Below are positions 10,530 to 52,392 of a stretch of 64,000 bases of DNA, in pieces (the first letter of the stretch is position 1; every line of letters starts with the position of its first letter). This DNA comes from Desulfosoma sp. Lineage in GTDB: Bacteria > Desulfobacterota > Syntrophobacteria > Syntrophobacterales > DSM-9756. The notes below the pieces were generated by a model. That model was not told the DNA's origin, searched no databases, and worked only from the letters and a program-made list of their open reading frames with translations. The DNA lies in the NCBI GenBank assembly GCA_037481835.1, contig JBBFKW010000004.1:176944-240943 (forward strand). Reading direction: 5' to 3'. A program made the position numbers and the translations under genes.

Positions 10530-10530
10530 G

Positions 10531-20620: not shown

Positions 20621-20630
20621 GGGGCCTGCT

Positions 20631-21704
20631 CTAAGAGCCTTCGATCCATTCATAGGCCATGGTCCGCTGCTTGGGCACGAACCCCGCGTCCTCGATGATT
20701 CGGCGAATTTCTTCCAGAGACAGCCGAAAATGCACCCCCGCCGCCGCCACCACGTTTTCTTCAATCATGGTGGACCCGAAATCGTTGGCGCCGAAAAAGA
20801 GGGCCGCCTGGGCCACCTTGGGGCCCATGGTGACCCAAGACGCTTGGATGTTGTCGAAATTGTCCAAGACGAGACGAGAGAGGGCCAGAAGGCGGAGGTA
20901 CCCCACGGCCGTTTCCGGACGTCTCTCAAGGGCCGTATGCCCCGGCTGGAAGGTCCACGGGATAAAGGCCGTAAAGCCGCCCGTTCGGTCCTGCAGGTCG
21001 CGCAACGCGAAAAGATGCGCCAGCCGGTCGTCCAAGGACTCTTCGTGGCCGAACATCATGGTGGCCGTCGTGCGCAGTCCCTGGCGATGCGCTTCTTCCA
21101 TGACACCGAGCCATTCGGCGGCCGAACACTTGTTGGGGGATACTTTGCGGCGGACCGCATCCACGAGGATTTCAGCCCCGCCACCGGGAATGGAATCCAA
21201 GCCGGCTTCCTTCAGGCGGGCGATGACCGCGGCCGTATCAAGCCTTTCGCGCCTGGCGAAGAAAACGATTTCCGGCGGGGAAAAGGCATGGATGTGCACG
21301 GGATAGCGATCCTTGATGAAGCGCAGCATGTCCTCGTAAAAACTCAAGGGGAGATCCGGGTGATGGCCTCCCTGAAGGAGGATTTGCGTGCCGCCCAGTA
21401 CCAGGGTTTCTTCGATTTTGCGGGCCAGGGCGCTTCTTTCGAGAACGTAGCCTTCGGGATGACCGGGAGGCCGATAAAAGGCGCAAAACCGACACCCACA
21501 AACACAGATGTTGGAATAGTTGATATTGCGGTCCACCACATAGGTGACCACGTCGTCCGGATGCTTTCTGCGCCGGATCGTATGGGCGGCGTATCCCAGC
21601 CAGTGGAAGTCGGCCTCGCGATAAATCCTTCGCGCCTCATCCCAGCTCACACGCCGTCCCTCGTTGAGGACCTCGTTGAAAAAGATCTCCTTCCCTTTTT
21701 CCAT
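20631..21704 (-). CDS. mqnC: Cyclic dehypoxanthinyl futalosine synthase (radical SAM)
   Basis: DRNINYSNICVCGCRFC, QILLQGG, PGGGAEIL, NIQASWVT and GSTMIEENVV. Confidence 0.93.
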   Translation of the reverse strand: MEKGKEIFFNEVLNEGRRVSWDEARRIYREADFHWLGYAAHTIRRRKHPDDVVTYVVDRNINYSNICVCGCRFCAFYRPPGHPEGYVLERSALARKIEETLVLGGTQILLQGGHHPDLPLSFYEDMLRFIKDRYPVHIHAFSPPEIVFFARRERLDTAAVIARLKEAGLDSIPGGGAEILVDAVRRKVSPNKCSAAEWLGVMEEAHRQGLRTTATMMFGHEESLDDRLAHLFALRDLQDRTGGFTAFIPWTFQPGHTALERRPETAVGYLRLLALSRLVLDNFDNIQASWVTMGPKVAQAALFFGANDFGSTMIEENVVAAAGVHFRLSLEEIRRIIEDAGFVPKQRTMAYEWIEGS

Positions 21705-21783
21705 CGTTTTCCTCTGAGCCATCCACGCCGTCCCGCCGATCCTCTTCTCCTCCTCGGCCGGATCGACCCGAAGGCTCTCTTTT

Positions 21784-22896
21784 TCAGCCCGCTTGGACCG
21801 ATGCCTGAGCGGCTTCGAAAAAGCAGTTTCGTTCCACGGGATGGAATCCCGCTTCCCGAATGAGATTTTCCAAGGCCTCCCGGGTGAGAAAATCTTCCGA
21901 TTCGGCTCCTGCCATGTGCCCGATCTTTTCTTCCACCACGGTGCCGTCCAGATCGTCTGCGCCGAAATGGAGCGCCACCTGGGCCAGTTTGACCCCAAGC
22001 ATGACCCAGTAGGCCTTGATGTGCGGGATGTTATCCAGCATGAGGCGCGAGACGGCGATGGTCTTCAGGATGTCGACACCGCTCGGCCCACGGGCGCCGT
22101 CCACTTCCGTGTTCAGCGGCTGGAACGGCAGCGGGATGAAACACACGAACCCTCCCGTTTCATCCTGAAGGCGGCGCAAAGCGTCCAGGTGCTCCAGTCG
22201 TTCCTCCAGGGTTTCCCTGTGGCCGAAAAGCATGGTGGCGTTGCTCTTGATTCCCAGTTCGTGGGCTTCCCGCATCACGCGCAGCCAGCCCTCGCCGTCC
22301 AACTTGTTCGGGCAAAGGAGCCGCCTCACCCGAGGACTGAAGACTTCCGCCCCCCCGCCGGGCAACATCTCCAAGCCCGCCGCCCGAAGCCTCAGGAGCA
22401 CCTCGCGGGTGGGGAGTCCCTCCAGGTGTGCGAAATGGGCGATTTCCACCGCCGTGAAGGCCTTGAGGTGCACCTGGGGCCGAACCCGCCGGATCGCCCG
22501 AAGCATCGCCTCAAAGGTTTCCAGGCGCAGCTCAGGGTGACAGCCTCCCACAATGTGAATTTCCGTGATGGGATCCTGAAAGCGTTCCTGGACCTTGGCC
22601 ACGACGTCCGAAACGGTGAGCTCGAACGATCCGGGTTCTCCCTTGCGGCGTCGAAAGGCACAAAAGAGGCACCCGTTCACGCACACGTTGGAATAGTTGA
22701 TGTGCTGGTTGACGACGTAAAAGGTCGTGCGCCCGTGCCGACGGAGCCGCACCTGATGGGCCAAAGCCCCCACGGCGACGAGATCCCGACACTGAAAAAG
22801 ACGCAGCCCGTCCTCCACGTCCAGGCGGTCCCCGGCAATGACCTTGTGGAAGATCCCATCAAGACCCAGGGACTTGTAAACCGCAGCCGGAATCAT
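21784..22896 (-). CDS. mqnE: Aminofutalosine synthase (radical SAM)
   Basis: HINYSNVCVNGCLFC, EIHIVGG, KAFTAVEI, HIKAYW and DGTVVEEKI. Confidence 0.93.
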   Translation of the reverse strand: MIPAAVYKSLGLDGIFHKVIAGDRLDVEDGLRLFQCRDLVAVGALAHQVRLRRHGRTTFYVVNQHINYSNVCVNGCLFCAFRRRKGEPGSFELTVSDVVAKVQERFQDPITEIHIVGGCHPELRLETFEAMLRAIRRVRPQVHLKAFTAVEIAHFAHLEGLPTREVLLRLRAAGLEMLPGGGAEVFSPRVRRLLCPNKLDGEGWLRVMREAHELGIKSNATMLFGHRETLEERLEHLDALRRLQDETGGFVCFIPLPFQPLNTEVDGARGPSGVDILKTIAVSRLMLDNIPHIKAYWVMLGVKLAQVALHFGADDLDGTVVEEKIGHMAGAESEDFLTREALENLIREAGFHPVERNCFFEAAQASVQAG

Positions 22897-23578
22897 CCTG
22901 TGCCCTTTCTGTTCGTTGGCTTTCGGCATGCCCAACGCTGTCGCCGGCCAATCCATTGTGCAAGACTTTGACAAATTCCCCTATCAGACGGTCCGTCACT
23001 TGGGGACTCCCTTCGTACAGGCCGGTGCCTCCATCCAGGAAGGAGACACAATGGGCCTGAAGGAATCGATCCATGACGGCGTCCAGGAAAAAGACAACGA
23101 AATCGGGATCCAGGTCCGAACGCACCTCGCCCCGGGCCATCCCCTTGAGCACCATGGGGCGCAGGTATTCGGCGGAAAAGAAACGCACCCGCTGGAGGAG
23201 TTCGGTCCTCAGGGGAAAATCTTCCTGAAAGAGCATCTTGAGATAAATGCGGTAGACGCGGGGATGCCGCCGGATGAAATCCACACCCGCCGCAAGGCTG
23301 CGGCGGATTTTTTCGTAAAAATCCTTTTCCGCCGTCTCTTCCTTGACCTGGGCCAAGCGCTTTCGCACCAAGGCGACGGCATGGTCGAAAATGAAAAGAA
23401 AGAGGCCTTCCTTGTTGCCGAAATACTGAAAGAGCGAGCCTTTGGAAATGCCCAGGGTTTGGGCCAAACGGTTGAGGCTCGCCTGCCGAAACCCATAGCG
23501 GGAAAATTCTTCCACGGCGCCTTCCAAAATCTTTTCCCGCTTGGGCTCCCTGAGCCTCATAAAGCGATCGATCCCCAT
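22859..23578 (-). CDS. TetR/AcrR-family transcriptional regulator
   Basis: ILEGAVEEFSRYGF...LGISKGSLFQYFGNKEGL HTH. Confidence 0.92.
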   Translation of the reverse strand: MGIDRFMRLREPKREKILEGAVEEFSRYGFRQASLNRLAQTLGISKGSLFQYFGNKEGLFLFIFDHAVALVRKRLAQVKEETAEKDFYEKIRRSLAAGVDFIRRHPRVYRIYLKMLFQEDFPLRTELLQRVRFFSAEYLRPMVLKGMARGEVRSDLDPDFVVFFLDAVMDRFLQAHCVSFLDGGTGLYEGSPQVTDRLIGEFVKVLHNGLAGDSVGHAESQRTERAQDDSGCGLQVPGS

Positions 23579-39766: not shown

Positions 39767-40543
39767 ATGACGAAGAAAACGCTGACAGCACGGCACATGC
39801 GCGGGGTTCGGACACCGTTGAACGAAAACACGTCGGCCGAAAGTTCCTTGGTGCCCATCGTCTCCGAGCACGAGGATTTCCTCCTCGTGCACAAGCCGCC
39901 GGATTGGGCCGTCACACGCGATGGACAAGACGAAGGGCTCGTAGCGCGGCTCCGCCGACAGACCGGTTGCGCCGCCTTGATCCCGGTGCACCGCTTGGAT
40001 AAAGTCACTTCCGGGTTGTGGCTCCTGGCCAAAGATGCGCGGACGGCTGCGGCACTTTCCGCCGTCTTTCGCCTGAGGCACGTCCGCAAGTGCTACGTGG
40101 CCCTTTCGGATCGCAAACCCCATAAGAAGCAAGGGGTCATCATCGGGGACATGGTCCGATCCCGAAACGGTCAGTGGAAGATGTGCCTTTCCCGAAGCGC
40201 TCCGGCCGTCACCCGTTTCATCAGCCGGTCGGTTGCGCCGGGGCTTCGGCTTTTTGCGCTTTTCCCCGAAACGGGAAAAACGCACCAAATCCGCGTGGCC
40301 ATGAAGTGCCTGGGAGCGCCCGTTCTCGGCGATCCCCTCTACGGGTCGGCTATACGCGGTTCCATGGTTCCGGATCGGACGTATCTCCATGCCTATGCGT
40401 TGGCCTTCGAGTTTCAGGGAATCCGGTACTTCTTCAAAGAGCCGCCCCGACACGGCCGGCTTTTCCTGAGCGAGCCCTTTGCCCGGGGCGTGGAATCCTT
40501 CGAGGCCCTTGAGCGGGAATTGGCGGCATGGAGGCGGCCATGA
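39767..40543 (+). CDS. RluA-family pseudouridine synthase
   Basis: HKP, HRLDKVTSG (catalytic Asp), TGKTHQIRV, GDPLYG and YLHA. Start is uncertain. Confidence 0.9.
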   Translation: MTKKTLTARHMRGVRTPLNENTSAESSLVPIVSEHEDFLLVHKPPDWAVTRDGQDEGLVARLRRQTGCAALIPVHRLDKVTSGLWLLAKDARTAAALSAVFRLRHVRKCYVALSDRKPHKKQGVIIGDMVRSRNGQWKMCLSRSAPAVTRFISRSVAPGLRLFALFPETGKTHQIRVAMKCLGAPVLGDPLYGSAIRGSMVPDRTYLHAYALAFEFQGIRYFFKEPPRHGRLFLSEPFARGVESFEALERELAAWRRP

Positions 40544-41490
40544 GACATTGGGGCACCGTCGCCCTATTGTGCGTCGTCCTTCTCTTTCCAGCCCATTCCC
40601 AAGGGGACAGCGCCGTGTTCGTGGATTTTTCCCTCCGCGGCCCTCCCCCCGCCCCCCGCAGCTCCCCTTCCGACCACACCCTTCGCGTCGCCGTGGGAGC
40701 CATGACGTCGCCCCAGGACACATTCCGCCATTATCGAGAACTCTTGGACTACGTCGGCCGGCGCATGGACCGAAAGGTCGTCCTGATCCAAAAGAAGACC
40801 TACGAGGCCCTGAGCCGCCTTTTCCAAATCGGGGCCGTGGATTGCGCCTTTGTGTGTTCCGGATCCTACGTGCTCCATCGGCGGGACGCCCACTGGATCC
40901 TCTTGGCGGCACCTCAGGTTATGGGGGAGACGACCTATCGGTCATACTTGATCGTGAACAAGGATTCCCCTTACCAAACCTTGGCGGATCTGCGCGGAAA
41001 GACCTTCGCTTTCACGGACCCTCATTCCAACACGGGCCGGCTGGTCCCGACCGCCTGGGTCCTTGCGGCCGGAGCCCCTCCGGAACGGTTCTTCTCAAAT
41101 GTCATTTACACTTACAGTCACGACAATTCCATTTTGGCCGTAGCCAAAGGCCTGGTGGACGGCGCCGCCGTGGACAGCTTGATCTGGGACTCTTACCAAG
41201 CGAGGGATCCAACCTGGACGGCCAAAACCAAAGTCATCCGACGGTCTGAACCCTTCGGGATTCCGCCGGTGGTCGTCGCTCCGTCCGTTTCGGCCCAGGA
41301 CAGAGAAAGGCTCCGCACGGTTTTCCTCACCATGCATGAAGAGCCCGAAGGGCGGGCCATTCTCGAGAGGCTTCGGGTCGAGCGCTTCGTGGTCCCCCAA
41401 GAGCAGTGGTACGAGGGGATCGAAGCGCTCCTGCGTGTTTTGAAGGACCATGGGATTTTCGACGATGCGGTGGAATCGGCTGAGCACTAA
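40540..41490 (+). CDS. PhnD/AioX/ArrX-like periplasmic oxyanion-binding protein
   Basis: Signal peptide; QKKTY, AFVCSGSY, YRSYLIV, FTDPHSNTG, YSHDNSI, GAAVDS and PPVVV. ATGA overlap with the upstream gene. Confidence 0.8.
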   Translation: MRHWGTVALLCVVLLFPAHSQGDSAVFVDFSLRGPPPAPRSSPSDHTLRVAVGAMTSPQDTFRHYRELLDYVGRRMDRKVVLIQKKTYEALSRLFQIGAVDCAFVCSGSYVLHRRDAHWILLAAPQVMGETTYRSYLIVNKDSPYQTLADLRGKTFAFTDPHSNTGRLVPTAWVLAAGAPPERFFSNVIYTYSHDNSILAVAKGLVDGAAVDSLIWDSYQARDPTWTAKTKVIRRSEPFGIPPVVVAPSVSAQDRERLRTVFLTMHEEPEGRAILERLRVERFVVPQEQWYEGIEALLRVLKDHGIFDDAVESAEH

Positions 41491-43660
41491 ACTGCTGTGC
41501 GGCGCCATTGCCGTGGTCGTCGTCAGCGCTTTCGGCGTCGCCGCGCTGGCCACCTATCGCTACAGCCAGACTCTGACGGAATCCCTCAGGCACCATTCCA
41601 TCCTCCTGGGCCAATCCCTGGCGGCCGAGGCCACAGAACTGATCCTGACCCACGACGTGGTGGCCTTGCAGAAAATGGCCCAGCATCAAACCATCCTCCA
41701 CCCGGACTTGGTCTATCTTTTTGTGGAAAAAGACGGTGCGGTGACCGCCCATTCTTTCAACGACGGATTCCCCCAAAATCTTCTGAGGGTGCATGCAGCC
41801 GCACCCCCTTCGCAGATCGCGGTGGCCGAGGTGGTTTCCGAAAAAGGGGAGCGATTTTTGGACATTGCCGTGCCCATTCTCGAAGGCCAAGCCGGGCGGC
41901 TGCGCCTGGGCTTTTCCGAACAGGCCCTAAGGGGGCGCATCCGCACTCTCTGGGCGAACATCGCCCTTATCACCCTGTTGATTCTGCTGACCACCATTGT
42001 GGCCATTTCCCTTCTCGTGCGCACTCTCATCCGCCCCCTGGCACGACTGACCCAAGCCGTGGACTGCGCCAGCCTGGGAGAGCTCAGCGTCAGAGTGGAA
42101 GAACAGGGCGACGAGGAAGTCGTCACCCTGGCGCGCTCGTTTAACAGGATGATGGATCGCCTGGAGGAGCACACCCGGAATTTGCAAAAGCAGGCCCAAG
42201 ACCTTTTCGTAGCCCAGCAGCAAGCGCGAGCCTTCTGCGATATCGTCCAAAACGTGGGGGCGCTCCCGTCCCTCCAAGACATTGGGACCTTCCTCATCCG
42301 ACGATTTCGGGACGTGCTGCAGTTCGAGACCGCCGCCCTGCTCCTGTTCGACGACGCCAGGGAAATCCTTCTCGTCATGGACGAAGAGACCCTGAAAACT
42401 TCCGAGGATCCGTCCCTGCTGCGGTGGTTTTCGCGCTTTCTGGAAACCCTGGATCGGCCCGGGACGCGCACGTTGACCACTCCGCCCGGCACGGACGGTT
42501 TTTTCAAAAAGCTGTGCCCGACGGGCACCCCCTGCGGGGTCGTCCCCATTCATGCCGAAGACCCTTTCCCCTTTGGCATACTCATGGTCCGGTGCGACGG
42601 GCCATGTCATTGCCCGCCGGCTTCATTGGACCTCATCGCCGCCATGCTTCGTGAAGCTTCCAGAGTCCTGCGCCGCGCCGTCGTCCATGAAATGGAAATG
42701 CGCTTCGTCAAGCGCCTTGCCAGTCCCGACGCCGCCTTCTGCGGCATTGTGGGCCGAGATCCCGGCATGCAGAACGTCTTTCGACTCATCGAGAACGTTG
42801 CTGCATCGGACGCTACGGTTCTCATCCAAGGCGAGAGCGGCACGGGAAAGGAGCTGGTCGCCCATGCCATCCACCAAATGAGCCCTCGAAGCGCGCATCC
42901 CTTCGTGGTCATCAACTGCGCCGCCTATCCCCCAACCCTCATCGAAACCGAGCTCTTCGGCCATGAAAAAGGCGCGTTTACCGGTGCGGACCGCGCGCGC
43001 CAAGGCCGCTTCGAACAAGCTCGGGGCGGAACGGTTTTTCTCGATGAAGTGGGAGAAATCCCCGCCCCGGTCCAGGTGAAGCTCCTTCGAGTCCTGCAGA
43101 CCCATGAGTTCGAAAGGGTCGGGGGCGAAAAGACCCTCGCGGCGGACGTGCGGGTGGTTGCGGCCACCCACCGCACTCTCTTGGATGAGGTGAAAAACGG
43201 CCGGTTTCGTGAGGATCTTTTCTACCGACTGAACGTCATTCCCCTTTTAATCCCGCCGCTTCGGCGCCGTCCTGCGGACATTCCTCTGCTGGCGCGCCAT
43301 TTTCTCCAAAAGTTTCGAACCATACACAAGAAAGACGTGAAGGAATTTCATCGCGATGTGCTTCGGCTTTTTATGAACTACGACTGGCCCGGAAACGTCC
43401 GGGAGCTGGAGAACACCGTGGAGCATGCCGTGTTGCTGTCTAAAAACGACGTCATCCAAGTCTGGGATCTCCCATCCGCGCTGGCACGACGGGTCTCGGT
43501 TTCCACCGAAAACCTCGCCACTATGGAAGAAAGGGAGAGAAAAGCCATCATGGAGGCTTTGGAAGCCTCCCGGGGGAATAAGAAAAAAGCGGCCCAGAAG
43601 CTGGGCATCAGCCGAAGCGCCCTCTACAACAAGTTGAAAAAATACGGCCTGGATTCCTGA
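41465..43660 (+). CDS. Membrane-anchored sigma54-dependent activator (TM-periplasmic-TM-HAMP-GAF-like-AAA+-HTH)
   Basis: Two TM helices; HAMP (RPLARL...DEEVVTLARSFNRM); GESGTGKE, GAFTGA, FLDE, WPGNVREL and a Fis-type HTH. Confidence 0.92.
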   Translation: MRWNRLSTKLLCGAIAVVVVSAFGVAALATYRYSQTLTESLRHHSILLGQSLAAEATELILTHDVVALQKMAQHQTILHPDLVYLFVEKDGAVTAHSFNDGFPQNLLRVHAAAPPSQIAVAEVVSEKGERFLDIAVPILEGQAGRLRLGFSEQALRGRIRTLWANIALITLLILLTTIVAISLLVRTLIRPLARLTQAVDCASLGELSVRVEEQGDEEVVTLARSFNRMMDRLEEHTRNLQKQAQDLFVAQQQARAFCDIVQNVGALPSLQDIGTFLIRRFRDVLQFETAALLLFDDAREILLVMDEETLKTSEDPSLLRWFSRFLETLDRPGTRTLTTPPGTDGFFKKLCPTGTPCGVVPIHAEDPFPFGILMVRCDGPCHCPPASLDLIAAMLREASRVLRRAVVHEMEMRFVKRLASPDAAFCGIVGRDPGMQNVFRLIENVAASDATVLIQGESGTGKELVAHAIHQMSPRSAHPFVVINCAAYPPTLIETELFGHEKGAFTGADRARQGRFEQARGGTVFLDEVGEIPAPVQVKLLRVLQTHEFERVGGEKTLAADVRVVAATHRTLLDEVKNGRFREDLFYRLNVIPLLIPPLRRRPADIPLLARHFLQKFRTIHKKDVKEFHRDVLRLFMNYDWPGNVRELENTVEHAVLLSKNDVIQVWDLPSALARRVSVSTENLATMEERERKAIMEALEASRGNKKKAAQKLGISRSALYNKLKKYGLDS

Positions 43661-43777
43661 CCCCCCAAAGGACACTTCGCAAGGACCGCCCTTTCGTGTC
43701 CACATGATGGACACACCATGTTTTCGAAATTCAAAGTAAAAAAATATCCATGGGGCCCGTGTTTCAAAGTTGGACGT
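43657..43777. promoter_or_regulatory. Putative upstream activator sequences for the sigma54 promoter
   Basis: Perfect GTGTCCA-CATGA-TGGACAC at 43696-43714; degenerate copies at 43657-43675 and 43759-43777, with an AT-rich tract in between. Confidence 0.6.
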
Positions 43778-43874
43778 TTTTTCAGGGCCCGTGGGGCTTC
43801 TTTCGGATCCCCAGGGCAGGCTTTTCTCAAGGGTAACGGCGGGGAGGCTTTCTTCGACGGCTCGTCGCCCTTGT

Positions 43875-43890
43875 CGGCACATCCTTTGCT
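43875..43890 (+). promoter_or_regulatory. Sigma54 (-24/-12) promoter
   Basis: CGGCACATCCTTTGCT, with GG-N10-GC spacing. Confidence 0.75.
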
Positions 43891-43966
43891 CCCAAGGGAA
43901 AGGGCAAGAACCTCTGCTCCTTGGATCGGAGAACCATACCCATGGAATGAACGGCCGGAAAGGGCG

Positions 43967-44320
43967 ATGAAGGACCTATTCCTTCTCTGTGAAGACCAGG
44001 ATCTCGTGAAGACTGTGGCGCATGCGGCCGAGCGCATGGGCTATCAGACGCGCTCTTTTTCCACCATGGATCATCTCTCAGAAGCCGCAGCCCAATTCAA
44101 CCCGACGATCATCCTTCTCGATCTGGACAATGCCTCCGTCCGCTCCGAATTGATCCAGTGCGCCGCCCAGTCCGCGCCTCGCACGCCCATCATCGCCCTT
44201 TCCGGCCGTTCATTTCACCCGGAACTCGCCGATGCCTTTGCGCAGCACATCCGGGTGTGCTTGCGAAAGCCCCTGGATATAGAGGAGCTGTCTTTTTGGC
44301 TTCGATCGTTCAGCCGATGA
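43967..44320 (+). CDS. Stand-alone receiver (REC)-like protein
   Basis: LLCED, IILLDLD (phospho-Asp position), IIALSG and LRKP. Confidence 0.72.
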   Translation: MKDLFLLCEDQDLVKTVAHAAERMGYQTRSFSTMDHLSEAAAQFNPTIILLDLDNASVRSELIQCAAQSAPRTPIIALSGRSFHPELADAFAQHIRVCLRKPLDIEELSFWLRSFSR

Positions 44321-44390: not shown

Positions 44391-45143
44391 ATGGGAAAAG
44401 TGCTCCCGTCTGAAGACGTCCTCATCCGCATGCAGCGGGACGTCAAGAGGGCGCTTCAGAGAAACGCCAAGGATGTTCGATGGACCATGGTCATCGACCT
44501 CGGCAAGTGTACGGGGTGTCATTCCTGCACCCTGGGCTGCGTGTCCGAAAACAAACTCCCGCCGGGCGTTGTCTACCGGTTGGTGATCGAAGAAGAAGTC
44601 GGTCGCTACCCGTCCGTTCGGCGGCGTTTTCTGCCTCGGCCCTGCATGCACTGCCAGAATCCGCCGTGCACGAAGGTGTGTCCGGTCACGGCCACCTATG
44701 CCAATGCTCAAGGGGTCGTCGTGGTGGACTACAACCGATGCATCGGCTGCCGCTACTGCTTGGTGGCGTGCCCTTACTCCGCACGCACCTCCGATTTCGG
44801 CGAATGGTACACGCGGGGAACGCCTGAAGCTCCCAAGGTCCTCGTGGGAAAAACAGCGGCGGCGCAAGCTTACGAGGCGACCCCTTCCACGGAATACGGG
44901 AAAAAATGGCCCGTTCGAGGCAACGGCTCTCCCATCGGCAACGCCCGCAAGTGCCACTTCTGCCTACACCGTCTCGCCGTGGGTATGCTCCCCGCCTGTG
45001 TGACCACATGCACGGCTCGGGCGACCTTTTTCGGGGATCGAAACGATCCCCAGAGTCTTGTTTACGAACTGTTGGGGTCCCCCAGGCTGTTTCAGCTTAA
45101 GCCTGAATTGGGCACGCATCCCGCCGTCTATTACCTCAGATGA
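44391..45143 (+). CDS. 4Fe-4S subunit of a Ttr/Srd-like molybdoenzyme (TtrB-like)
   Basis: CTGCHSC, CMHCQNPPC, CIGCRYC and CHFC; AAGGAG RBS. Confidence 0.92.
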   Translation: MGKVLPSEDVLIRMQRDVKRALQRNAKDVRWTMVIDLGKCTGCHSCTLGCVSENKLPPGVVYRLVIEEEVGRYPSVRRRFLPRPCMHCQNPPCTKVCPVTATYANAQGVVVVDYNRCIGCRYCLVACPYSARTSDFGEWYTRGTPEAPKVLVGKTAAAQAYEATPSTEYGKKWPVRGNGSPIGNARKCHFCLHRLAVGMLPACVTTCTARATFFGDRNDPQSLVYELLGSPRLFQLKPELGTHPAVYYLR

Positions 45144-45158
45144 GAGAAAGGAGCCGGA

Positions 45159-46391
45159 ATGCAACGCACAGCTTTTTCTTTGCTCATCGGTGTCGCAGTG
45201 CTGGGCCTCATTGCGGGCAGTTGGGGCATGGTCCAACGGCTCCTTTACGGCTTGAACCCCGTAGCGTTCGGCTCTTACGTCCCCTGGGGGCTCTGGGTTG
45301 CCTTCTACCTTTACTTTCTCGGCCTTTCCGCCGGGGCTTTTCTTGTCACCATGATGGCCTATGTTTTCGAAATGGAACGATTCCACCGCTTGGGTCGCCT
45401 GGCTGCCTACACCGTACTTATCGCCCTTTTGTGTGAGGTGCTTTTCATCACCTTGGACCTGGGGCGCATGAGCCGAATCTATCGGTTTCTCATCACCCCT
45501 AGCTTCAGTTCGCTGATGACCTGGATGTTCGTTCTCTTTAACGCCATGCTCATCATTTACGCCTTGAAGACATTCTTTCTCATTCGTGGAGACCTTGTGG
45601 CTTGGTCCAAGGCCCCCGATCGCAAAGGTCGGACCCTGTATCGGCTCTTGGCCCTGGGCAAGAGCGAGTACTCGGAAAGGGATCGCCAAAGGGACCATAA
45701 AATCGTGCATGGACTGTCCCTTGTGAGCCTTCCTGTGGGTCTTCTGTTTTACGGCACCAATGGCGCTTTCTTCGCCATCCTCATGAATCGCCCCATCTGG
45801 AACAGCGCGCTCACTCCTCTGCTTTTCATCATCGCAGCCATCCTTTCCGGCGGTGCCCTCATCACGGTTCTGACCCACGTTTTCATGCGGGACGACCACC
45901 TGGTCCGATCCCTCGGACGGGCCACCCTTTTCGCGCTCGTGGCCTTTCTGTTCCTGGAGATGCTGCAGTTCTTCGTGGGCTACCAGGCCAACGTCCCGTG
46001 GGCCGTCGCGGCACTCAACCTTATCGCCTTCGGGGATTACTGGTGGACCTTCTGGATCGTCCATTTGATTTTGGGCGGCCTCATCCCCCTCCTGCTCCTC
46101 CTGGCAGGCAAAGAGAACGCCACGACCGTCGCCTGGGCCTGCGCCCTCATCGTCCTCACCTTCGTCGCCGTCCGCTTCAACTTCATTATCCCCGACCTGG
46201 CGGTCTATAAACTGGAAGGGCTCGAACACACCTTCTACCACGCCCGTTTGCGCACCCACTACACGCCCAACATGAACGAATGGCTGGTCAGCATCTGGGT
46301 AGTCTCCTTGGGACTCCTAGCGTTTCTCTTGGGCGCTCGCTGGCTGCCGGTAACATCTTCGGACCGAGGAGGGATGGAACATGCGCATTGA
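45159..46391 (+). CDS. NrfD/PsrC-family membrane anchor (TtrC-like)
   Basis: VPWGLWVAFYLYFLGLSAG and LDLGR; multiple TM helices. Confidence 0.92.
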   Translation: MQRTAFSLLIGVAVLGLIAGSWGMVQRLLYGLNPVAFGSYVPWGLWVAFYLYFLGLSAGAFLVTMMAYVFEMERFHRLGRLAAYTVLIALLCEVLFITLDLGRMSRIYRFLITPSFSSLMTWMFVLFNAMLIIYALKTFFLIRGDLVAWSKAPDRKGRTLYRLLALGKSEYSERDRQRDHKIVHGLSLVSLPVGLLFYGTNGAFFAILMNRPIWNSALTPLLFIIAAILSGGALITVLTHVFMRDDHLVRSLGRATLFALVAFLFLEMLQFFVGYQANVPWAVAALNLIAFGDYWWTFWIVHLILGGLIPLLLLLAGKENATTVAWACALIVLTFVAVRFNFIIPDLAVYKLEGLEHTFYHARLRTHYTPNMNEWLVSIWVVSLGLLAFLLGARWLPVTSSDRGGMEHAH

Positions 46392-49300
46392 CGCTCGATC
46401 GATCAAGGAAAACGGCACTCTGGACATGGAAAGGCGCCGGTTCTTGAAGTGCTCGGCTTTGCTCGGCGGTTCTGCGGCCGCCTCGGCTTTCCTCGGCCGG
46501 TGGATCCCCGGCATCAAAGAGGCGGAGGCCTCTGCGGCCTCTGGCGCCGCCGGGATCGAAGGCAACGCCTACCAGCATCATCTGCCCGAAAATCAAATCT
46601 ATTCCGTCTGTCAGCAGTGCAACACCAACTGCGGCATCAAGGTGAAATTCGTGGACGGCAAGGTGGCCAAAATCGACGGGAATCCCTACAACCCGTGGAC
46701 CATGACCCCGCACATTCCCTACGAAACACCCATAGGAGAAGCAGCCACTGTGGAAGGGGGCATTTGTCCCAAGGGCCAGGCGGGAATTCAAACCCTTTAT
46801 GATCCATACCGCATCGTGAAAGTCTTGAAACGCGCTGGAAAGCGGGGCGAAAATAAATGGAAGACTATCCCCTTCGAGCAGGCCCTGGATGAAATCATCA
46901 ACGGCGGGGATTTGTTCGGCGAAGGCCATGTGGACGGCCTCAAGGACATCTGCACCCTTCGGGATCCCAAGATCTCCAAGGCTTTGGCGCAAGACGCCGA
47001 GCTGGTCGCCGCAAAGAAAATGAGCCTGGAGGAATTCAAGGCAAAACATGCGGCCAACCTCCACCACCTCATCGACCCGGACCATCCCGACCTGGGCCCG
47101 AAGAACAATCAGTTCTGCCTCAACTGGGGCCGACTCAAAGCCGGCCGCAGCGACCTCCTCAAGCGTTTCGTCAACAAAGCTTTGGGGTCCGTCAACACCC
47201 ACGGCCATACCACCGTGTGTCAAGGATCGCTCTATTTTACGTGCAAGGCCATGAGCGACCAGTTTGAAGAAGGGAAATGGGGCGGCGGGAAAAAGTTCTA
47301 CTGGCAGGCGGACACGGGCAACGCGGAGTTCATCATTTTCGTCGGCGCCAATCCTTACGAAGCCAATTACGGGCCGCCCTTGAGGGCCCAAAAGATCAGC
47401 GAAGGCCTCATCGACGGTCGGCTGAAAATTGCTGTCGTAGATCCACGATGCTCAAAGACGGCCGCACGGGCATGGAAATGGATCCCCGTGCAGCCCAACG
47501 GCGTCGGGGCCTTGGGCATGGCCATGATCCATTGGATGCTGGAAAACAATCGTTTCGACGCCCGCTACTTGGCCAACGCCAACAAAGGCGCCGCGGTCGA
47601 GGATGGCGAGCCCACATGGACCCAAGCCCCGTGGCTCGTCAAAATCGGCCCCGACGGCACGCCCGGAAAATTTCTGCGCGGCTCCGACATTGGCATTCCC
47701 TCGGAAAAGCGTCCCAAAAAAGACGGTTCCGGCGATTGGGAGCTGGATCCTTTTCTCGTCATGCGCGACGGGGCTCTCATTCCCTTCGATCCCAATGACG
47801 CCAAAACCCCCGTGGAAGGAGACCTCTTCGTCAACACAGAGGCCAACGGCATCCCGATCAAGAGCGTGCTTCAGATCCTGAGGGAAGCGGCCGCGCGATT
47901 TTCCCTATCCCAGTGGGCCGAAATGGCCGGCGTTGCGGAAAAGGATATCGTGGAGCTGGCCCGGGAATTCACGAGTCACGGAAAGCGTGCCGCGGTCGAT
48001 TGCCACCGCGGTGTATCCCAGCACACGTCCGGCTTCTATAACGTGCTCACCTGGATGACGGTCAACACCCTCATCGGCAACCACGACTACATGGGAGGGC
48101 TTTCCAAAGCCACCACCTATGACATCACAGGGGAAAAGCCGGGCAAACCTTTCAATTTGACCTTTCATGAGGGAAGCCTCAAGGAATGGGGGATCTCCAT
48201 CATCCGCCACGAAAAGGTCTACGATAAGACGACCCTCTTCCAGGGCTTTCCCTCCAAGAGGGTTTGGTATCCTTTTTCCAGCGACATTTACCAGGAGGTC
48301 ATCCCCAGCATGGGAGACGCCTATCCTTATCCCATCAAGGCTCTGTTCCTATACATGGGCTCGCCCGTCTACGCCCTTCCCGCGGGAAATAAGCTGGTGG
48401 AAATTCTTTCGGATCCCAAGAAAATCCCGCTCTTTTTCGTCTCCGACATCGTCGTTGGGGAAACATCCATGTATGCGGACTACATCTTCCCGGATCTCAC
48501 TTACTTGGAACGGTGGGAATTTTCGGGCTCGCACCCCTCCGTCACACCCAAAGTGGCCCCCTTCCGGCAGCCGGCTTCGGCGCCCCTCACGGAGACGGTC
48601 ACCGTCTTCGGCGAAAAAATGCCGCTTTCCCTGGAATCCCTCGTCCTGGGAATCGCCGAAAAACTGCGGTTGCCCGGCTTTGGGGAAAACGCCTTCGGTC
48701 CCGGTTTACACCTGAAACGTGACGAAGATCTGTATGTACGCATGGTCGCCAACATCGCCTTCGGGGACAAACCCGACGGGTCTGAACGCGTGCCCGCCGC
48801 CGATGCCGAGGAAATGCGGATTTTTGAACAATCCCGTCGGCATTTGCCGGAAACCGTCTTCAAGATCGATCGATGGAAAACTCTGGTCGGGCCCGAACTG
48901 TGGCCCCATGTGGTCTACGTGCTGAACCGCGGCGGGCGTTTCCAAAGCTACCACGACGCCTATAAAGACGGAAAGCTCACCAACAAGTACGGCAACATGG
49001 TGGGCCTCTACTTTGAAAAACTGGCCACGACCCGGCATTCCATGACCGGCGAAACCTACATTCCCCACGCAGCATTCGTCGAGGGCCCGCGGGATTGCCG
49101 CGGAAACCTTCTCGACGATGCGGCCCAGGGGTTTGACTTGACCTTGATCACTTACAAGACCATTACTCAGACCAAATCGCGAACGTCCGGCAACTACTGG
49201 CTGCAGGCCGTCTATGCGGAAAACGCCGTCGATATTTCCACGACGGACGCCCGACGGCTGGGCCTGCGCCCGGGAGACCGGGTGCGGATCGTTTGTCCCA

Positions 49301-49611
49301 CCAACCCAGACGGAGAATGGGATCTCGGGCATGGGTTCAAGAAGCCCATGATCGGACGCGTGCGCATCATCGAAGGCATCCGTCCCGGCGTCATCGCCTT
49401 TTCTTTGGGCCACGGCCACTGGGCCTACGGATCCTCGGACACGGTCATCGACGGCACGAGGATCCCTGCGGATCCCCGGCGGGCCACGGGCTTTCACGGA
49501 AACGCCGGCATGCGGGTCGACCCCGTGTTGCAAAACACGGGGCTTGTGGATACAGTGGGCGGAAGTGCGGTCTTTTACCAAAGCCAAGTGAAGCTCGTCA
49601 AAGTGACCTAG
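46381..49611 (+). CDS. DMSO-reductase-family Mo/W-bisPGD catalytic subunit, tetrathionate/selenate reductase (TtrA/SrdA)-like
   Basis: Tat motif RRRFLK; CQQCNTNC...ICPKG Fe-S motif, DGNPYNP, LGPKNNQ, HTTVC, ETSMYADYIFPD.TYLE and GHGHWAYG. 1076 aa; B-C-A gene order. Confidence 0.88.
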   Translation: MRIDARSIKENGTLDMERRRFLKCSALLGGSAAASAFLGRWIPGIKEAEASAASGAAGIEGNAYQHHLPENQIYSVCQQCNTNCGIKVKFVDGKVAKIDGNPYNPWTMTPHIPYETPIGEAATVEGGICPKGQAGIQTLYDPYRIVKVLKRAGKRGENKWKTIPFEQALDEIINGGDLFGEGHVDGLKDICTLRDPKISKALAQDAELVAAKKMSLEEFKAKHAANLHHLIDPDHPDLGPKNNQFCLNWGRLKAGRSDLLKRFVNKALGSVNTHGHTTVCQGSLYFTCKAMSDQFEEGKWGGGKKFYWQADTGNAEFIIFVGANPYEANYGPPLRAQKISEGLIDGRLKIAVVDPRCSKTAARAWKWIPVQPNGVGALGMAMIHWMLENNRFDARYLANANKGAAVEDGEPTWTQAPWLVKIGPDGTPGKFLRGSDIGIPSEKRPKKDGSGDWELDPFLVMRDGALIPFDPNDAKTPVEGDLFVNTEANGIPIKSVLQILREAAARFSLSQWAEMAGVAEKDIVELAREFTSHGKRAAVDCHRGVSQHTSGFYNVLTWMTVNTLIGNHDYMGGLSKATTYDITGEKPGKPFNLTFHEGSLKEWGISIIRHEKVYDKTTLFQGFPSKRVWYPFSSDIYQEVIPSMGDAYPYPIKALFLYMGSPVYALPAGNKLVEILSDPKKIPLFFVSDIVVGETSMYADYIFPDLTYLERWEFSGSHPSVTPKVAPFRQPASAPLTETVTVFGEKMPLSLESLVLGIAEKLRLPGFGENAFGPGLHLKRDEDLYVRMVANIAFGDKPDGSERVPAADAEEMRIFEQSRRHLPETVFKIDRWKTLVGPELWPHVVYVLNRGGRFQSYHDAYKDGKLTNKYGNMVGLYFEKLATTRHSMTGETYIPHAAFVEGPRDCRGNLLDDAAQGFDLTLITYKTITQTKSRTSGNYWLQAVYAENAVDISTTDARRLGLRPGDRVRIVCPTNPDGEWDLGHGFKKPMIGRVRIIEGIRPGVIAFSLGHGHWAYGSSDTVIDGTRIPADPRRATGFHGNAGMRVDPVLQNTGLVDTVGGSAVFYQSQVKLVKVT

Positions 49612-49621
49612 AGCGCGCGCC

Positions 49622-50278
49622 ATGCAAGATTTTGAATCGCTCCTCGCCTCGTCTGCCGAAGCCCACGGCCATCTGTGCCCCGGTCAGGTGATCGGGGTGC
49701 GCATGGCCATGTTGGGATGCGCTTTGGTGGGCTTGGACAATCCGCAGAGTCTTCCGCAACTCAAGAAGCTCATTGTTTATGTGGAAATGGACCGTTGTGC
49801 CGCCGATGCCGTCGCCCACGTCACAGGCGTCAAACTGGGTCGCCGAAGCCTGAAATTCATGGATTACGGCATCATGGCGGCCACCTTCGTCAATCTGGAA
49901 ACCGGGCGCGCCTTCCGGGTGCTTTCGACGGAAGAGTCGCGGGATTTGGCGGCGGTCTACGCCCCGGAAGTCGTCGGCAAATCCGCGCAGCAGCTCGAGG
50001 CTTACCGGCGCATGCCCGATGAGCTCCTGTTCCGGGTCCAGGAAGTGACCGTGGCCATCGATCCCCTGGACCTTCCCGGACCTACCCGGCGCAAGACGGC
50101 CTGCACCCGATGCGGCCAGATCGTGCGAGACGGCAAGGAAGTGATCACGCCAGAGGGGCCTCTGTGTGTTCCCTGCGGCCGCGGGGCTTATTTTACATGC
50201 GTGCGGGAAGTGCCGCTGAACGAAGCCCTGAAGAGCGAACCTTCAACGATTCTCGCCACAACAGCACACCAAGCGTAA
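49622..50278 (+). CDS. FmdE-family protein with a C-terminal zinc finger
   Basis: HGHLCPG, EMDRCAADA and CTRC...CVPC. Confidence 0.88.
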   Translation: MQDFESLLASSAEAHGHLCPGQVIGVRMAMLGCALVGLDNPQSLPQLKKLIVYVEMDRCAADAVAHVTGVKLGRRSLKFMDYGIMAATFVNLETGRAFRVLSTEESRDLAAVYAPEVVGKSAQQLEAYRRMPDELLFRVQEVTVAIDPLDLPGPTRRKTACTRCGQIVRDGKEVITPEGPLCVPCGRGAYFTCVREVPLNEALKSEPSTILATTAHQA

Positions 50279-50288
50279 GAGGGGTCCG

Positions 50289-51323
50289 ATGAAGCTCAAA
50301 ACCATTCCCGTAGAAAAAGCCGTCGGCCTGACTTTAGCCCACGACATTACGGAAATCCGGCCGGGCGTCTTCAAAGGGGCGGCTTATCGGCGAGGCCACA
50401 CGGTCTGCGAGCAGGATATCTGTCACTTGCAAAAGCTCGGCAAGAATCGCCTCTACGTCATCGAACTGGAATCGGACGAAATCCACGAAGACGAGGCGGC
50501 GGCCCTTCTGGCCGACGCTCTGGCAGGCGAAAACGTTCTATGGGATGAAGGCCCCCGCGAGGGAAAAATCAAGCTTAAGGCCGCCGTGGACGGATTGCTG
50601 TGCGTCAATGTCCCGGCTCTGGCCGCCTTCAACATGGTCGAGGAGGTCATGTGCGCCACGCTGCATACGGGCACTTTGGTGCGCCGAGGGGATTTGGTGG
50701 CCGCCACCCGGGCCATTCCTCTGGTCATGAAAAGGGCACCCGTGGAAAGGGCCGCGGCCATCGCCAAAGCCCAGGGGGGAATCGTTTCGGTTAGGGTTCT
50801 GAGGCGAGCCAAGGCCGGGATCATCATCACGGGAAACGAAGTTTACCACGGTCTCATCGAGGACCGGTTCGCACCGATCTTAGCCCAAAAGCTTGAAGCA
50901 TTAGGTTCAGCAATTCACATCCTTCGCTATGCTCCGGACGATATGGGGGCCATCCGAGAGGCCATCGCCGAAGCGCTTCGCCAGGACTGCGATCTTCTCT
51001 TGGTAACCGGGGGCATGAGCGTGGACCCCGATGACGTGACGCGGGCCGGGATTGCCGCCGCCGGCGGCCGGTCGATCCATTACGGGTCGGCGGTGCTTCC
51101 CGGGGCGATGATCCTTACGGGCTTTATCGGCTCCGTCCCGATCCTGGGCGTTCCCGCCTGCGCCCTGCACCACAGGGTGACGGTCTTCGATCTCATCCTG
51201 CCGAGAATCCTGGCAGGGGAAGAAATCGGCAAGACCCAACTCGCCCTCATGGGCCACGGGGGCCTGTGCCGGGACTGCCCCCAATGCACCTACCCCCATT
51301 GCCCCTTCGGCAAGGGCGCATGA
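50289..51323 (+). CDS. MoeA/MoaB-like molybdopterin-binding protein with a C-terminal Cys cluster
   Basis: LAHDITEI, TGNEV, TGGMSVDPDD, VLPGAM and CRDCPQCTYPHCPFGK. Confidence 0.85.
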   Translation: MKLKTIPVEKAVGLTLAHDITEIRPGVFKGAAYRRGHTVCEQDICHLQKLGKNRLYVIELESDEIHEDEAAALLADALAGENVLWDEGPREGKIKLKAAVDGLLCVNVPALAAFNMVEEVMCATLHTGTLVRRGDLVAATRAIPLVMKRAPVERAAAIAKAQGGIVSVRVLRRAKAGIIITGNEVYHGLIEDRFAPILAQKLEALGSAIHILRYAPDDMGAIREAIAEALRQDCDLLLVTGGMSVDPDDVTRAGIAAAGGRSIHYGSAVLPGAMILTGFIGSVPILGVPACALHHRVTVFDLILPRILAGEEIGKTQLALMGHGGLCRDCPQCTYPHCPFGKGA

Positions 51324-51435: not shown

Positions 51436-51813
51436 CTACTCGTTTTTCTTGTCCGCCATCAAGCCCGCCAGTCCCGCAAAGGGATTGTGCCGGAAGCCGT
51501 CCCGTGAAGTTTCCCGAACCGGTTCGGCCTCATAGGCATCGGCAACCCGATCGCGGGCGTGTTCATTTTCATGGCAGTAGAGGCACAGGAGCTCCCAGTT
51601 GCTTCCGTCGGGCGGGTTGTTGTCATGATTGTGGTCCTTATGATGCACGGTAAGCTCCCTCAAACGCTTTCCGCTGAACTCCCTGCCGCACCGCGCGCAC
51701 ACGTGAGGCAGAATTTTCAAGGCGCGTTCCCGGTAGCTTTTTTCCCTTTCTTTGCGAACGCGAAGCCCCTCTTCAAAGGCGCTTTTCTGACCGCCGCTCC
51801 TTGACGAAGGCAC
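51436..51813 (-). CDS. yajD: YajD-family HNH nuclease
   Basis: YRERALKILP.VCARCGREF and HHKDHNHDNNPPDGSNWELLCLYCHENEH. Confidence 0.88.
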   Translation of the reverse strand: MPSSRSGGQKSAFEEGLRVRKEREKSYRERALKILPHVCARCGREFSGKRLRELTVHHKDHNHDNNPPDGSNWELLCLYCHENEHARDRVADAYEAEPVRETSRDGFRHNPFAGLAGLMADKKNE

Positions 51814-51909: not shown

Positions 51910-52392
51910 TCATTTTCCCTTTAAGGGAATGGGCGTGTCTCGAGGGACGGCGACGGCCGTGATGCTGTTTTTCGGGCTGCCTTCGATGAGCCGGTCCGAA
52001 TAGGTCAGATAGACAAGGACGTTTCGGGCGGAATCCACCATGCGCACCACCTGGACCCGTTTGAAAATGAGGGAAGCGCGTTCGGAAAAGACTTCCTCTT
52101 TTTCCGGCACTTCCGAGCGAAAGCGGATGGGCCCCGTCTGCCGACACGAAATGGAGGCATCGGAGGGATCCTCCGCCACCCCCACGGCCCCCTTGATTCC
52201 GCCCGTTTTCGCTCGGGAGACATAACAGGAAACCCCTTCCACCCGCGGATCGTCGAAGACCTCCACAACAATTTTGTGATCCGGCCCGATGAGTTTCCAC
52301 ACTGTGGACACTTCCCCGATTTTCTCTCCATACACCGGCCCTTGGGTGAGCATCAAAACCAGTGCCGGTAAAATCCACCGTGATCGTTTCAT
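51910..52392 (-). CDS. creA: CreA family protein
   Basis: [34 protein letters not shown] and GSPKNSI. Confidence 0.92.

Follow-up and report, generated by a model that had tools for sequence, protein, structure and literature searches.

A conserved cassette of a binding protein, a kinase-less membrane activator and a detached receiver, predicted to control respiratory reductase operons in Desulfosoma and its relatives

The locus and its relatives

We analyzed a 64-kb stretch of a Desulfosoma sp. contig, here called the window, to which all coordinates refer, and find in it a cassette of three regulatory genes in front of a molybdoenzyme operon. Read along the + strand, the order is a gene for an exported binding protein, a gene for a membrane-integral sigma-54 enhancer-binding protein, a spacer of 306 nt, a gene for a stand-alone receiver, and then the reductase operon at 44391-51323 (Table 1). 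An efflux operon of the resistance-nodulation-division type lies upstream of the cassette on the opposite strand, and the cassette is present as a single copy in the genome. Judged from its sequence, this conserved combination of an ArrX/AioX-type protein, a membrane activator lacking a kinase and a detached receiver probably switches on respiratory reductase operons without phosphotransfer. A first-pass annotation, made from the letters of this DNA alone, had named the elements of the cassette, and all of them were recovered at their positions as open reading frames (ORFs), Pfam domains or motifs; to these the present analysis adds a conserved receiver partner whose pocket is degenerate, a palindromic enhancer, promoter counts across loci, a triad of cysteines in GAF, and the range of target operons.

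Relatives were collected by scanning one genome per species. A relative is encoded at 172 of the 469 pattern matches, and the best 80 of these 172 loci were used; cultured carriers include Desulfacinum infernum DSM 9756 (locus L002) and Desulfosoma caldarium. Synteny was counted by tblastn with the proteins of the window, and the denominators given below are the loci with enough flanking sequence. Nearly all related loci show the three genes in this arrangement, which is thus more than a chance neighborhood. The 80 loci belong nearly all to Desulfobacterota, and the only copy from elsewhere is in a metagenome-assembled genome of Nitrospirota (locus L024, 9992-11668), where the regulator ORF is cut inside the AAA+ domain (558 aa), no binding-protein or receiver gene is found nearby and a masked run of N is present in the locus. 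Because the ORF is truncated and the partners are missing, we treat this copy as a remnant.

Table 1. Features of the cassette, its control region and the adjoining genes (window coordinates; TM, transmembrane segment; AF2, AlphaFold2)
Feature	Position	Strand	Evidence or remark
Pseudouridine synthase gene	39767-40543	+	precedes the three regulatory genes
Predicted exported ArrX/AioX-subfamily periplasmic oxyanion-binding protein ("X" component)	40540..41490	+	Pfam, PDB and profile matches
Predicted membrane-integral sigma-54 enhancer-binding protein, 731 aa (736 aa from 41450)	41465..43660	+	Pfam, hydropathy, AF2
TM1	41492-41554	+	hydropathy
Periplasmic sCache_3_2-like sensor domain between TM1 and TM2	41555..41944	+	hydropathy, AF2, sub-threshold Pfam
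TM2	41951-42025	+	hydropathy
HAMP domain	42011..42169	+	Pfam 7.4e-11; PDB HAMP matches
GAF-fold domain (modeled)	42272..42721	+	AF2 secondary structure, Foldseek, weak profile matches
CDGPCHC (CX3CXC triad), end of last GAF strand	42593..42613	+	alignment of 70
AAA+ sigma-54 interaction domain	42746..43246	+	Sigma54_activat 6.1e-72, 241 bits
Walker A	42830-42853	+	
GAFTGA	42971-42988	+	
Walker B	43037-43057	+	
Fis-type HTH_8 DNA-binding domain	43520..43645	+	Pfam 5.3e-16, 58.5 bits
Predicted enhancer (upstream activating sequence), perfect palindrome GTGTCCACATGATGGACAC	43696..43714	.	180 nt upstream of promoter
Sigma-54 -24/-12 promoter GGCAC-N5-TTGC	43876..43889	+	motif search
Stand-alone receiver-fold protein, 117 aa, first gene of the sigma-54 operon	43967..44320	+	Pfam sub-threshold, AF2, Foldseek
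TtrB-like 4Fe-4S subunit	44391..45143	+	Pfam Fer4_11
NrfD/TtrC-like membrane quinol subunit	45159..46391	+	Pfam NrfD 2.6e-37
TtrA-like molybdopterin catalytic subunit, 1076 aa, RRRFLK twin-arginine motif	46381..49611	+	Pfam, NCBIfam
FmdE-domain protein	49622..50278	+	Pfam 6.6e-30
MoCF_biosynth (MoeA/CinA-like) protein	50289..51323	+	Pfam 7.2e-24; co-occurs in relatives

The binding protein and the membrane regulator

The longest ORF of the binding protein runs from 40528 to 41490, its likely start is the ATG at 40540, which has GGAGG in front of it, and its N-terminus carries a signal-like hydrophobic segment. The product matches Pfam Phosphonate-bd (E 3.4e-66), and it had first been described as a PhnD-like solute-binding protein whose gene overlaps that of a 731-aa protein. 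The overlap of 26–41 nt is confirmed, but in the sense of a transporter component the PhnD label does not hold, the protein being ArrX/AioX-like. A sequence search of the PDB returned ArrX of Chrysiogenes arsenatis (6x6b) with E 3.6e-54 and 187 bits, and AioX with 2e-39 and 139 bits; a profile built from 68 family members scored 272.7 bits (3.5e-80) against ArrX, 215.9 bits against AioX and 82.5 bits (2.8e-22) against E. coli PhnD, while the score for the NCBIfam PhnD equivalog TIGR03431 was 133.3 bits, below the cut-off of 261.1. In the family alignment the columns Y92, C110, Y137, S167 and H198 do not vary, and D211 is near-invariant. The pocket of AioX is described as Tyr88, Cys106, Tyr131, Ser161, Ser163, His192 and Asp210, its cysteine as not being found in PhnD, and the AioX/ArrX subfamily as consisting of binding proteins for sensing, not for transport (PMC5908839); our columns were paired with these residues by eye on the printed pairwise alignment. 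From these similarities, the binding protein is assigned to the sensor subfamily that partners the AioS and ArrS kinases, not to the PhnD transporters. Membership of an ABC importer had been set as a check on the first reading of the locus, and here we find no ABC permease or ATPase gene near the cassette in the window nor adjoining it in the nine annotated relatives, and the only other PhnD-family gene of the genome is the genuine one, in a phnC-phnD-phnGHIJ operon on contig C2.

The ORF of the regulator extends from 41450 to 43660, and the 731-aa form that starts at 41465 matches the database copy (P0004). Hydrophobic segments at residues ~10-30 and ~163-187 flank about 130 residues. In addition to the domains in Table 1, the Pfam scan matches AAA_lid_14, and Walker A, GAFTGA, Walker B, the arginine-finger region and sensor II are all intact, so that the protein, with its AAA+ motifs and its helix-turn-helix (HTH), is classed as a sigma-54 enhancer-binding protein. 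An AF2 model of residues 1-425, built with 70 homologues, has a mean predicted local distance difference test score (pLDDT) of 87.7. In it a long helix and a five-stranded sheet come first, a second long helix then leads into HAMP, and after another long helix there is an alpha/beta domain at 270-419. With Foldseek, the whole N-terminal arrangement matches a WalK model (1.7e-10) and the last domain matches many GAF structures (3k2n, 3ci6, 3trc), among them 3k2n, the GAF domain of a sigma-54 regulator of Chlorobium, with a template modeling (TM) score of 0.62 on the target. Pfam gives no match in this region, and a profile search of PDB sequences gave weak GAF matches besides the HAMP matches. 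The middle region is thus modeled as a GAF fold. The architecture first noted for this protein, a transmembrane sensor and HAMP fused to a GAF-like region with CDGPCHC, to an intact AAA+ domain with GAFTGA and to an HTH, is borne out by the Pfam, hydropathy and AF2 results and by the location of the motifs, and what was called GAF-like can, with the Foldseek matches, be called a GAF domain. One correction concerns the periplasmic sensor, which is a predicted sCache_3_2-like domain (PF17203; 24.9 bits against a cut-off of 28.4).

The domain scan found no histidine kinase, as the first-pass annotation had proposed: by Pfam at E<=0.01 the regulator contains neither HisKA, HATPase_c nor REC, and although the genome has 54 HATPase_c matches, none of them is on the contig of the window. 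All 35 full-length relatives in a set of 5.8 billion proteins carry HAMP and Sigma54_activat, and none of them carries kinase or receiver families. No kinase adjoins the cassette in the nine annotated relatives, the nearest being a PAS kinase 9 kb away in locus L056. A weak paralogue of the N-terminal part, encoded on contig C11, was set aside, as it is an ordinary HAMP kinase beside a REC-AAA+ regulator, without a binding protein, and resembles the regulator in TM and HAMP only. In public databases, members of this family (P0010, P0011 and others) go by names such as "two-component system response regulator HydG" or "NtrC family, contains REC". These names are unsuited to proteins without a receiver domain and call for correction.

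A question that follows from this architecture is which protein recognizes the inducer. The sCache-like domain could bind the inducer itself, with the binding protein serving as an accessory, be it a scavenger, a buffer or a specificity filter. The periplasmic domain does belong to a very large sensor family, as its profile, searched against 1.84 billion representatives, retrieves 1857 proteins (E<=1e-3), and of the 43 listed carriers outside our family that were scanned most are histidine kinases, many of them matching sCache_3_2, the others including two chemoreceptors, two GGDEF-EAL proteins, one SpoIIE phosphatase and one LuxR-type regulator. Furthermore, D64, Y84, H96, F98, P103, D133, G144 and R147 are invariant in 70 sequences, and these eight residues could form a ligand pocket. 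Against such direct sensing, the binding protein is encoded directly upstream on the same strand in 72 of the 73 loci with at least 900 nt of upstream sequence (the exception is L024), usually overlapping the regulator gene, its ORF ending about -46 to +22 nt from the regulator start. It is also the better conserved partner, with a mean column identity of 61% compared to 54% for the sensor half of the regulator, and it belongs to the sole subfamily of periplasmic binding proteins that the AioX paper presents as known to act as kinase sensors rather than in transport (PMC5908839). We therefore consider it improbable that the binding protein is a mere accessory, and favor that the loaded binding protein addresses the periplasmic domain. 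Predicting a complex between the periplasmic domain (residues 33-160) and the mature binding protein (residues 48-320), both supplied with their alignments, gave a score of 0.01 compared to a mark of 0.32; as a run without controls, it counts neither for nor against contact.

The same sensor module is found in P0096 (809 aa), in which the periplasmic domain is followed by HAMP, PAS, GAF, PAS and a LuxR-type GerE HTH, with no kinase. This protein is a candidate for another membrane-bound one-component regulator.

A second possible site of signal input is the GAF domain. Its cysteines C377, C381 and C383 are present in 67, 62 and 69 of 70 sequences, respectively, and all three together in 61, and an extra cysteine is found at column 287 in 58 of the 70. 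Three-thiolate As(III) sites are established in ArsR-type repressors. A sigma-54 activator, OrpR, is described as sensing through a cysteine-bound Fe-S cluster (PMC8359166). With these two precedents, the decisive signal could be cytoplasmic, the CX3CXC motif binding As(III) or a metal, or carrying an Fe-S or redox center, and the periplasmic part only anchoring or tuning the protein. Such a mechanism would leave unexplained both the near-universal linkage to an exported sensor-type binding protein and the strong conservation of the periplasmic domain and HAMP, and the clade of the window protein lacks the fourth cysteine, having F at column 287. We find it quite improbable that the cytoplasmic signal is the decisive one, and our preferred reading places the primary input in the periplasm.

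Finally, the membrane-bound form could be inactive, with a signal-triggered proteolysis releasing a soluble GAF-AAA+-HTH activator. This would agree with the description of studied enhancer-binding proteins as being kept inactive by membrane association (PMC10084136), but no conserved protease gene is found in the nine annotated neighborhoods, and HAMP, a conformational transmitter, is kept in all 35 full-length relatives. Regulated release thus appears very unlikely to us, and we consider in the following a regulator that works while embedded in the membrane.

The sigma-54 control region and the detached receiver

The spacer between the regulator gene and the receiver gene contains a sigma-54 promoter, and rpoN is present in the genome. 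Of 65 loci, 51 have a match to NGGYAY-N5-TTGC in the 200 nt before the receiver gene, at a median distance of 85 nt, where 0.0045 matches per 200 nt are expected. Upstream of the promoter the hexamer GGACAC is enriched (32/51, compared to a background of 8%), and it resolves into the palindrome GTGTCC-N7-GGACAC, which is found there with at most two mismatches in 55 of the 65 loci and with at most one in 34; in the 1.23 Mb of sequence that makes up the loci there are 41 matches with at most one mismatch, and 34 of these are upstream of the promoter. In the 64-kb window GTGTCCACATGATGGACAC is the only match without mismatch, and six matches with at most two mismatches compare to 3.2 expected. 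The window alone therefore gives the palindrome no significance, and its significance comes from the conservation across loci. A copy with one mismatch at 52293-52311 was considered as a second site and rejected, as it is inside a coding region and probably due to chance. Between enhancer and promoter A/T-rich words are enriched, which would suit bending of the DNA.

The receiver gene had been listed as a 200-aa ORF from 43718, which runs through the promoter, whereas the 117-aa form starts at the ATG at 43967. The window protein scores 28.1 bits against Pfam REC, for which the cut-off is 30.2; among 57 family members REC is matched by 49, FleQ by 8 and VpsR by 5. In the AF2 model (pLDDT 94.4) it has a (beta-alpha)5 fold, and Foldseek aligns it with the receivers of Spo0F and KdpE at TM scores of 0.84-0.88. 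The early description of a stand-alone REC-like gene as the first gene of the target operon is therefore upheld by its fold and by its place behind a conserved sigma-54 promoter. The best matches of the family profile among solved sequences are the receivers of NtrC1 (8.4e-7) and NtrC4 (1.6e-6), while an hhalign comparison with the AioR receiver gave generic similarity, at a probability of 4%. Specific to the family is the motif S-x4-H-P-E-L at the beta4-alpha4 junction, in which H84-P85-E86-L87 begins alpha4.

The receiver raises the possibility of a hidden phosphorelay, in which an unlinked kinase or acetyl phosphate phosphorylates D52 and the phosphorylated receiver is required for activating or releasing the regulator. 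The window protein has a canonical receiver fold with E9-D10, D52 at the end of beta3, S79 at the end of beta4 and K101 after beta5; the latter three are kept in 52, 57 and 50 of 57 members, and with the 54 HATPase_c matches of the genome orphan kinases would be available. As the window receiver retains all phospho-acceptor residues, a kinase encoded far away could act on it. On the other hand, the acidic pocket of the family is degenerate. Only the window protein itself (1/57) has the canonical acidic pair, which serves for Mg2+ at the end of beta1; 23 members have D8/D10, 17 show a single acidic position, and in 16 positions 8-10 hold no acidic residue. Apart from the PAS kinase of L056, no kinase is linked to the annotated loci, and the receiver gene is placed behind the very promoter that its product would have to activate. 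The receiver gene is furthermore not universal. It is found downstream of the regulator in 62 of 66 loci (the exceptions are L024, L031, L038 and L054), and the receiver profile, run with all filters off, found nothing in L031, L038 and L054, with 171 bits in L036 as the positive control. The receiver is thus dispensable in some lineages, and as it is missing from three otherwise intact cassettes we regard it as a modulator and not as an obligatory relay. An obligatory phosphorelay therefore has, in our estimate, little likelihood. The position behind the promoter would make the receiver a feedback element, and our reading of the protein is that of an NtrC-type receiver which has become a separate partner and acts mostly independently of phosphorylation; it may either inhibit or help the regulator.

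Target operons and the proposed signaling route

A molybdopterin subunit is encoded downstream of the cassette in 41 of the 49 loci with at least 9 kb of sequence. Together with the linkage of the binding protein, this answers the architecture search for HAMP and Sigma54_activat beside Phosphonate-bd and molybdopterin genes that the first-pass annotation had proposed, as the pattern does recur. By tblastn, the 80 loci comprise 34 with a TtrA-like enzyme, 5 with an ArrA-like enzyme, 8 with a PhsA-like enzyme and multihaem cytochromes, 13 with multihaem cytochromes only and 20 with none, the latter mostly having too little sequence. The 34 TtrA-like loci divide into 13 whose enzyme is at least 65% identical to that of the window, 18 at 43-58% identity and 3 of a 935-aa type. 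Among 32 complete catalytic subunits, NCBIfam models class 21 as TtrA-like (432-546 bits), 4 as ArrA-like and 7 as PhsA/DmsA-like, all of them sub-threshold; the ArrA-like ones are full-length matches of 1288-1324 bits, where the cut-off is 1600. In the window, the catalytic subunit scores 502.7 bits for TtrA (cut-off 1750), the 4Fe-4S subunit 170.4 bits for TtrB (cut-off 416), 171 for ArrB and 180 for DsrO, all sub-threshold, and the membrane subunit 27.9 bits for TtrC (cut-off 314). The reductase genes are followed by an FmdE gene in at least 9 loci. In the 13 loci with cytochromes only (L037, L049, L078 and ten others), the genes that come after the cassette and receiver encode no molybdoenzyme but a Cytochrome_C554/C552-like multihaem cytochrome c with a length of about 430 aa, together with a cytochrome b561.

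A quick IQ-TREE of the binding proteins follows host taxonomy and not enzyme class, as 4 changes are required to place the ArrA label on its 4 rows and 6 to place the PhsA-like label on its 6. The tree is therefore unusable for assigning ligands, and by this result the cassette has been re-attached to differing reductase operons with its pocket unchanged. TtrA homologues of Anaeromyxobacter PSR-1 and Geobacter OR-1 are reported as being induced by As(V) and as having As(V) reductase activity (PMC11462812), and TtrBCA homologues are described as having been shown to reduce only tetrathionate or arsenate (PMC13490349). In light of these reports an arsenate-type signal is a reasonable guess for the window, although the AioX paper warns that the pocket does not fix specificity (PMC5908839). 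The same paper puts the binding of ArrX at about 1 uM for arsenate and about 150 uM for phosphate.

The closest known counterparts are the AioXSR, ArxXSR and ArrXSR systems. In strain NT-26 the order is aioX, aioS (489 aa, with HAMP, HisKA and HATPase_c), aioR (REC, AAA+, HTH) and the oxidase genes. When the N-terminal alignment of our regulator is compared to NT-26 AioS by hhalign, columns 60-243 align with residues 66-258 (E 5.3e-5, probability 67%), the aligned part being the periplasmic domain, TM2 and HAMP. Shared with these systems are an X protein of the same subfamily with its pocket cysteine, the gene order of X first and transducer second, the sigma-54 AAA+ output, and an RpoN promoter in front of a molybdoenzyme operon. 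The window cassette differs from them in having neither HisKA and HATPase_c nor a receiver fused to the AAA+ domain, in joining sensor and output halves in one polypeptide with a GAF domain between them, in encoding a separate receiver-only protein behind the target promoter, and in its target, which is TtrA-like and not Aio, Arx or Arr. The simplest description of the regulator would therefore be an AioS-type sensor half joined through GAF to an AioR-type output half, with the kinase core and the fused receiver omitted.

Other systems share single parts of this design. In the tetrathionate system, TtrS combines binding domain and kinase in one protein, and its partner TtrR is a regulator of the LuxR type. 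With ttrBCA and TtrSR of Salmonella the window has in common the B-C-A order, the large TtrA-like catalytic subunit and a sensing module of the PhnD superfamily, but the present cassette has a free binding protein and no kinase, its output is sigma-54-dependent and the scores for TtrA, TtrB and TtrC are far under the cut-offs. NifA, FhlA and NorR are soluble cytoplasmic enhancer-binding proteins that sense their ligand in a GAF domain; the regulator resembles them in having GAF before AAA+ and HTH_8, but in it TM1, the periplasmic domain, TM2 and HAMP all come before GAF, which contains the CX3CXC motif. The receiver domains of NtrC1, NtrC4 and DctD exert negative control over AAA+ assembly, and the detached receiver has the same (beta-alpha)5 fold and finds in NtrC1 and NtrC4 its best sequence matches, yet it is a separate 117-aa protein with an acidic pocket that is degenerate in most relatives and with the S-x4-H-P-E-L motif. 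TorT-TorS and LuxP-LuxQ are built, as is proposed here, on a free periplasmic binding protein that addresses a transducer in the membrane, but those transducers are kinases, and ToxR and CadC are likewise membrane-anchored DNA-binding activators, but one-component winged-helix activators of the sigma-70 type where the present protein is an AAA+ sigma-54 activator. In our literature search we found no account of a sigma-54 activator that has HAMP or TM segments and a binding protein as its partner; a match in the Geobacter literature was rejected as a precedent, as it merely lists HAMP kinases.

We suggest that the loaded binding protein directly activates the membrane-integral enhancer-binding protein and that the receiver modulates it, as a kinase-free version of AioXSR/ArrXSR, a reading that we consider somewhat likely to be right. 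This picture fits because there is no kinase domain or kinase neighbor, the binding protein is of the ArrX type, the regulator is collinear with AioS and the receiver is behind a sigma-54 promoter. In such a route the exported ArrX/AioX-type protein would capture a periplasmic oxyanion, the foremost candidates being arsenate and its close chemical relatives, and once loaded would dock on the sCache-like domain of the regulator. The signal would then pass through TM2, HAMP and the long helix to GAF, which could free the AAA+ domain to oligomerize. The HTH would bind to the GTGTCC-N7-GGACAC site found upstream, and the sigma-54 RNA polymerase would be remodeled 180 nt downstream of it, so that transcription, following the gene order that we observe, would begin with the receiver gene and run on into the periplasmic quinol-linked TtrBCA-like operon. 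The NtrC-derived receiver may in turn modulate the regulator in trans, as a feedback element that for the most part needs no phosphorylation. More speculatively, the CX3CXC motif of GAF could add a cytoplasmic input, which would be As(III) bound through thiols or else a signal from redox state or a metal. The original proposal of a collapsed one-component path from solute-binding protein to activator is thus partly supported: it is kept for the kinase-less architecture and for the sensor-type binding protein, and contact of the binding protein with the regulator and kinase-free activation are predicted, the window receiver retaining its phospho-acceptor residues.

Several observations weigh against this reading. 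sCache domains usually bind small ligands directly, and hence the binding protein might not be the input. The AioS match is to a single template sequence at 67% probability. The conservation of D52, S79 and K101 in the receiver family, and their retention in the window protein, make phosphorylation by a distant kinase or by acetyl phosphate possible. The window enzyme is TtrA-like and yet well under every NCBIfam equivalog cut-off, and the pocket residues of ArrX-like proteins are reported not to fix specificity (PMC5908839). In the enhancer-binding proteins treated in PMC10084136, RedR2-BtdS and PspF-PspA among the studied cases, membrane association is inhibitory.

Enhancer-binding proteins are usually viewed as soluble and as controlled by phosphorylation, ligand binding or anti-activators. 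If a widespread family is itself a transmembrane receptor, sigma-54 would gain a new kind of input from the periplasm, and this raises the mechanistic question of how a ring ATPase with two TM helices per subunit is assembled on an enhancer. We can tentatively go one step further and combine all elements in a phosphotransfer-free pathway from periplasm to sigma-54, with a working AAA+ activator embedded in the membrane, a second signal, possibly the As(III) product, sensed by the three GAF cysteines, and a self-induced pseudo-receiver that tunes the regulator in trans, the whole cassette being placed before at least four kinds of respiratory module; that all of this holds together is rather unlikely. 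If it did, the TtrA-like and PhsA-like enzymes and the multihaem cytochromes of relatives among the sulfate reducers would be marked as oxyanion-inducible, possibly arsenate-inducible, reductases. The TtrA-like reductases of sulfate reducers and syntrophs are in any case flagged as candidates for the respiration of arsenate or related oxyanions, which bears on the mobilization of arsenic in soils and sediments as treated in PMC11462812. Furthermore, the binding protein, the regulator, the 19-bp enhancer and the sigma-54 promoter could be a compact set of parts for an oxyanion biosensor.

Some smaller observations concern the target region and the rest of the window. In L036 (12458-21236) the receiver gene is followed by two tandem TtrBCA-like sets, and L031, with a nearly identical binding protein, has neither the receiver nor the first of these sets, which looks like a recent deletion or duplication in the target region of the cassette. 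The window itself contains MobA-like and MoeA molybdenum-cofactor genes and a futalosine-type menaquinone cluster (VitK2_biosynth and two radical-SAM CofH/MqnC-like genes) at 9609-11775 and 18513-22974, and these would serve a quinol-linked molybdoenzyme like the one regulated here. Directly after the operon, a small ORF for an HNH endonuclease is found at 51436-51813 on the - strand.

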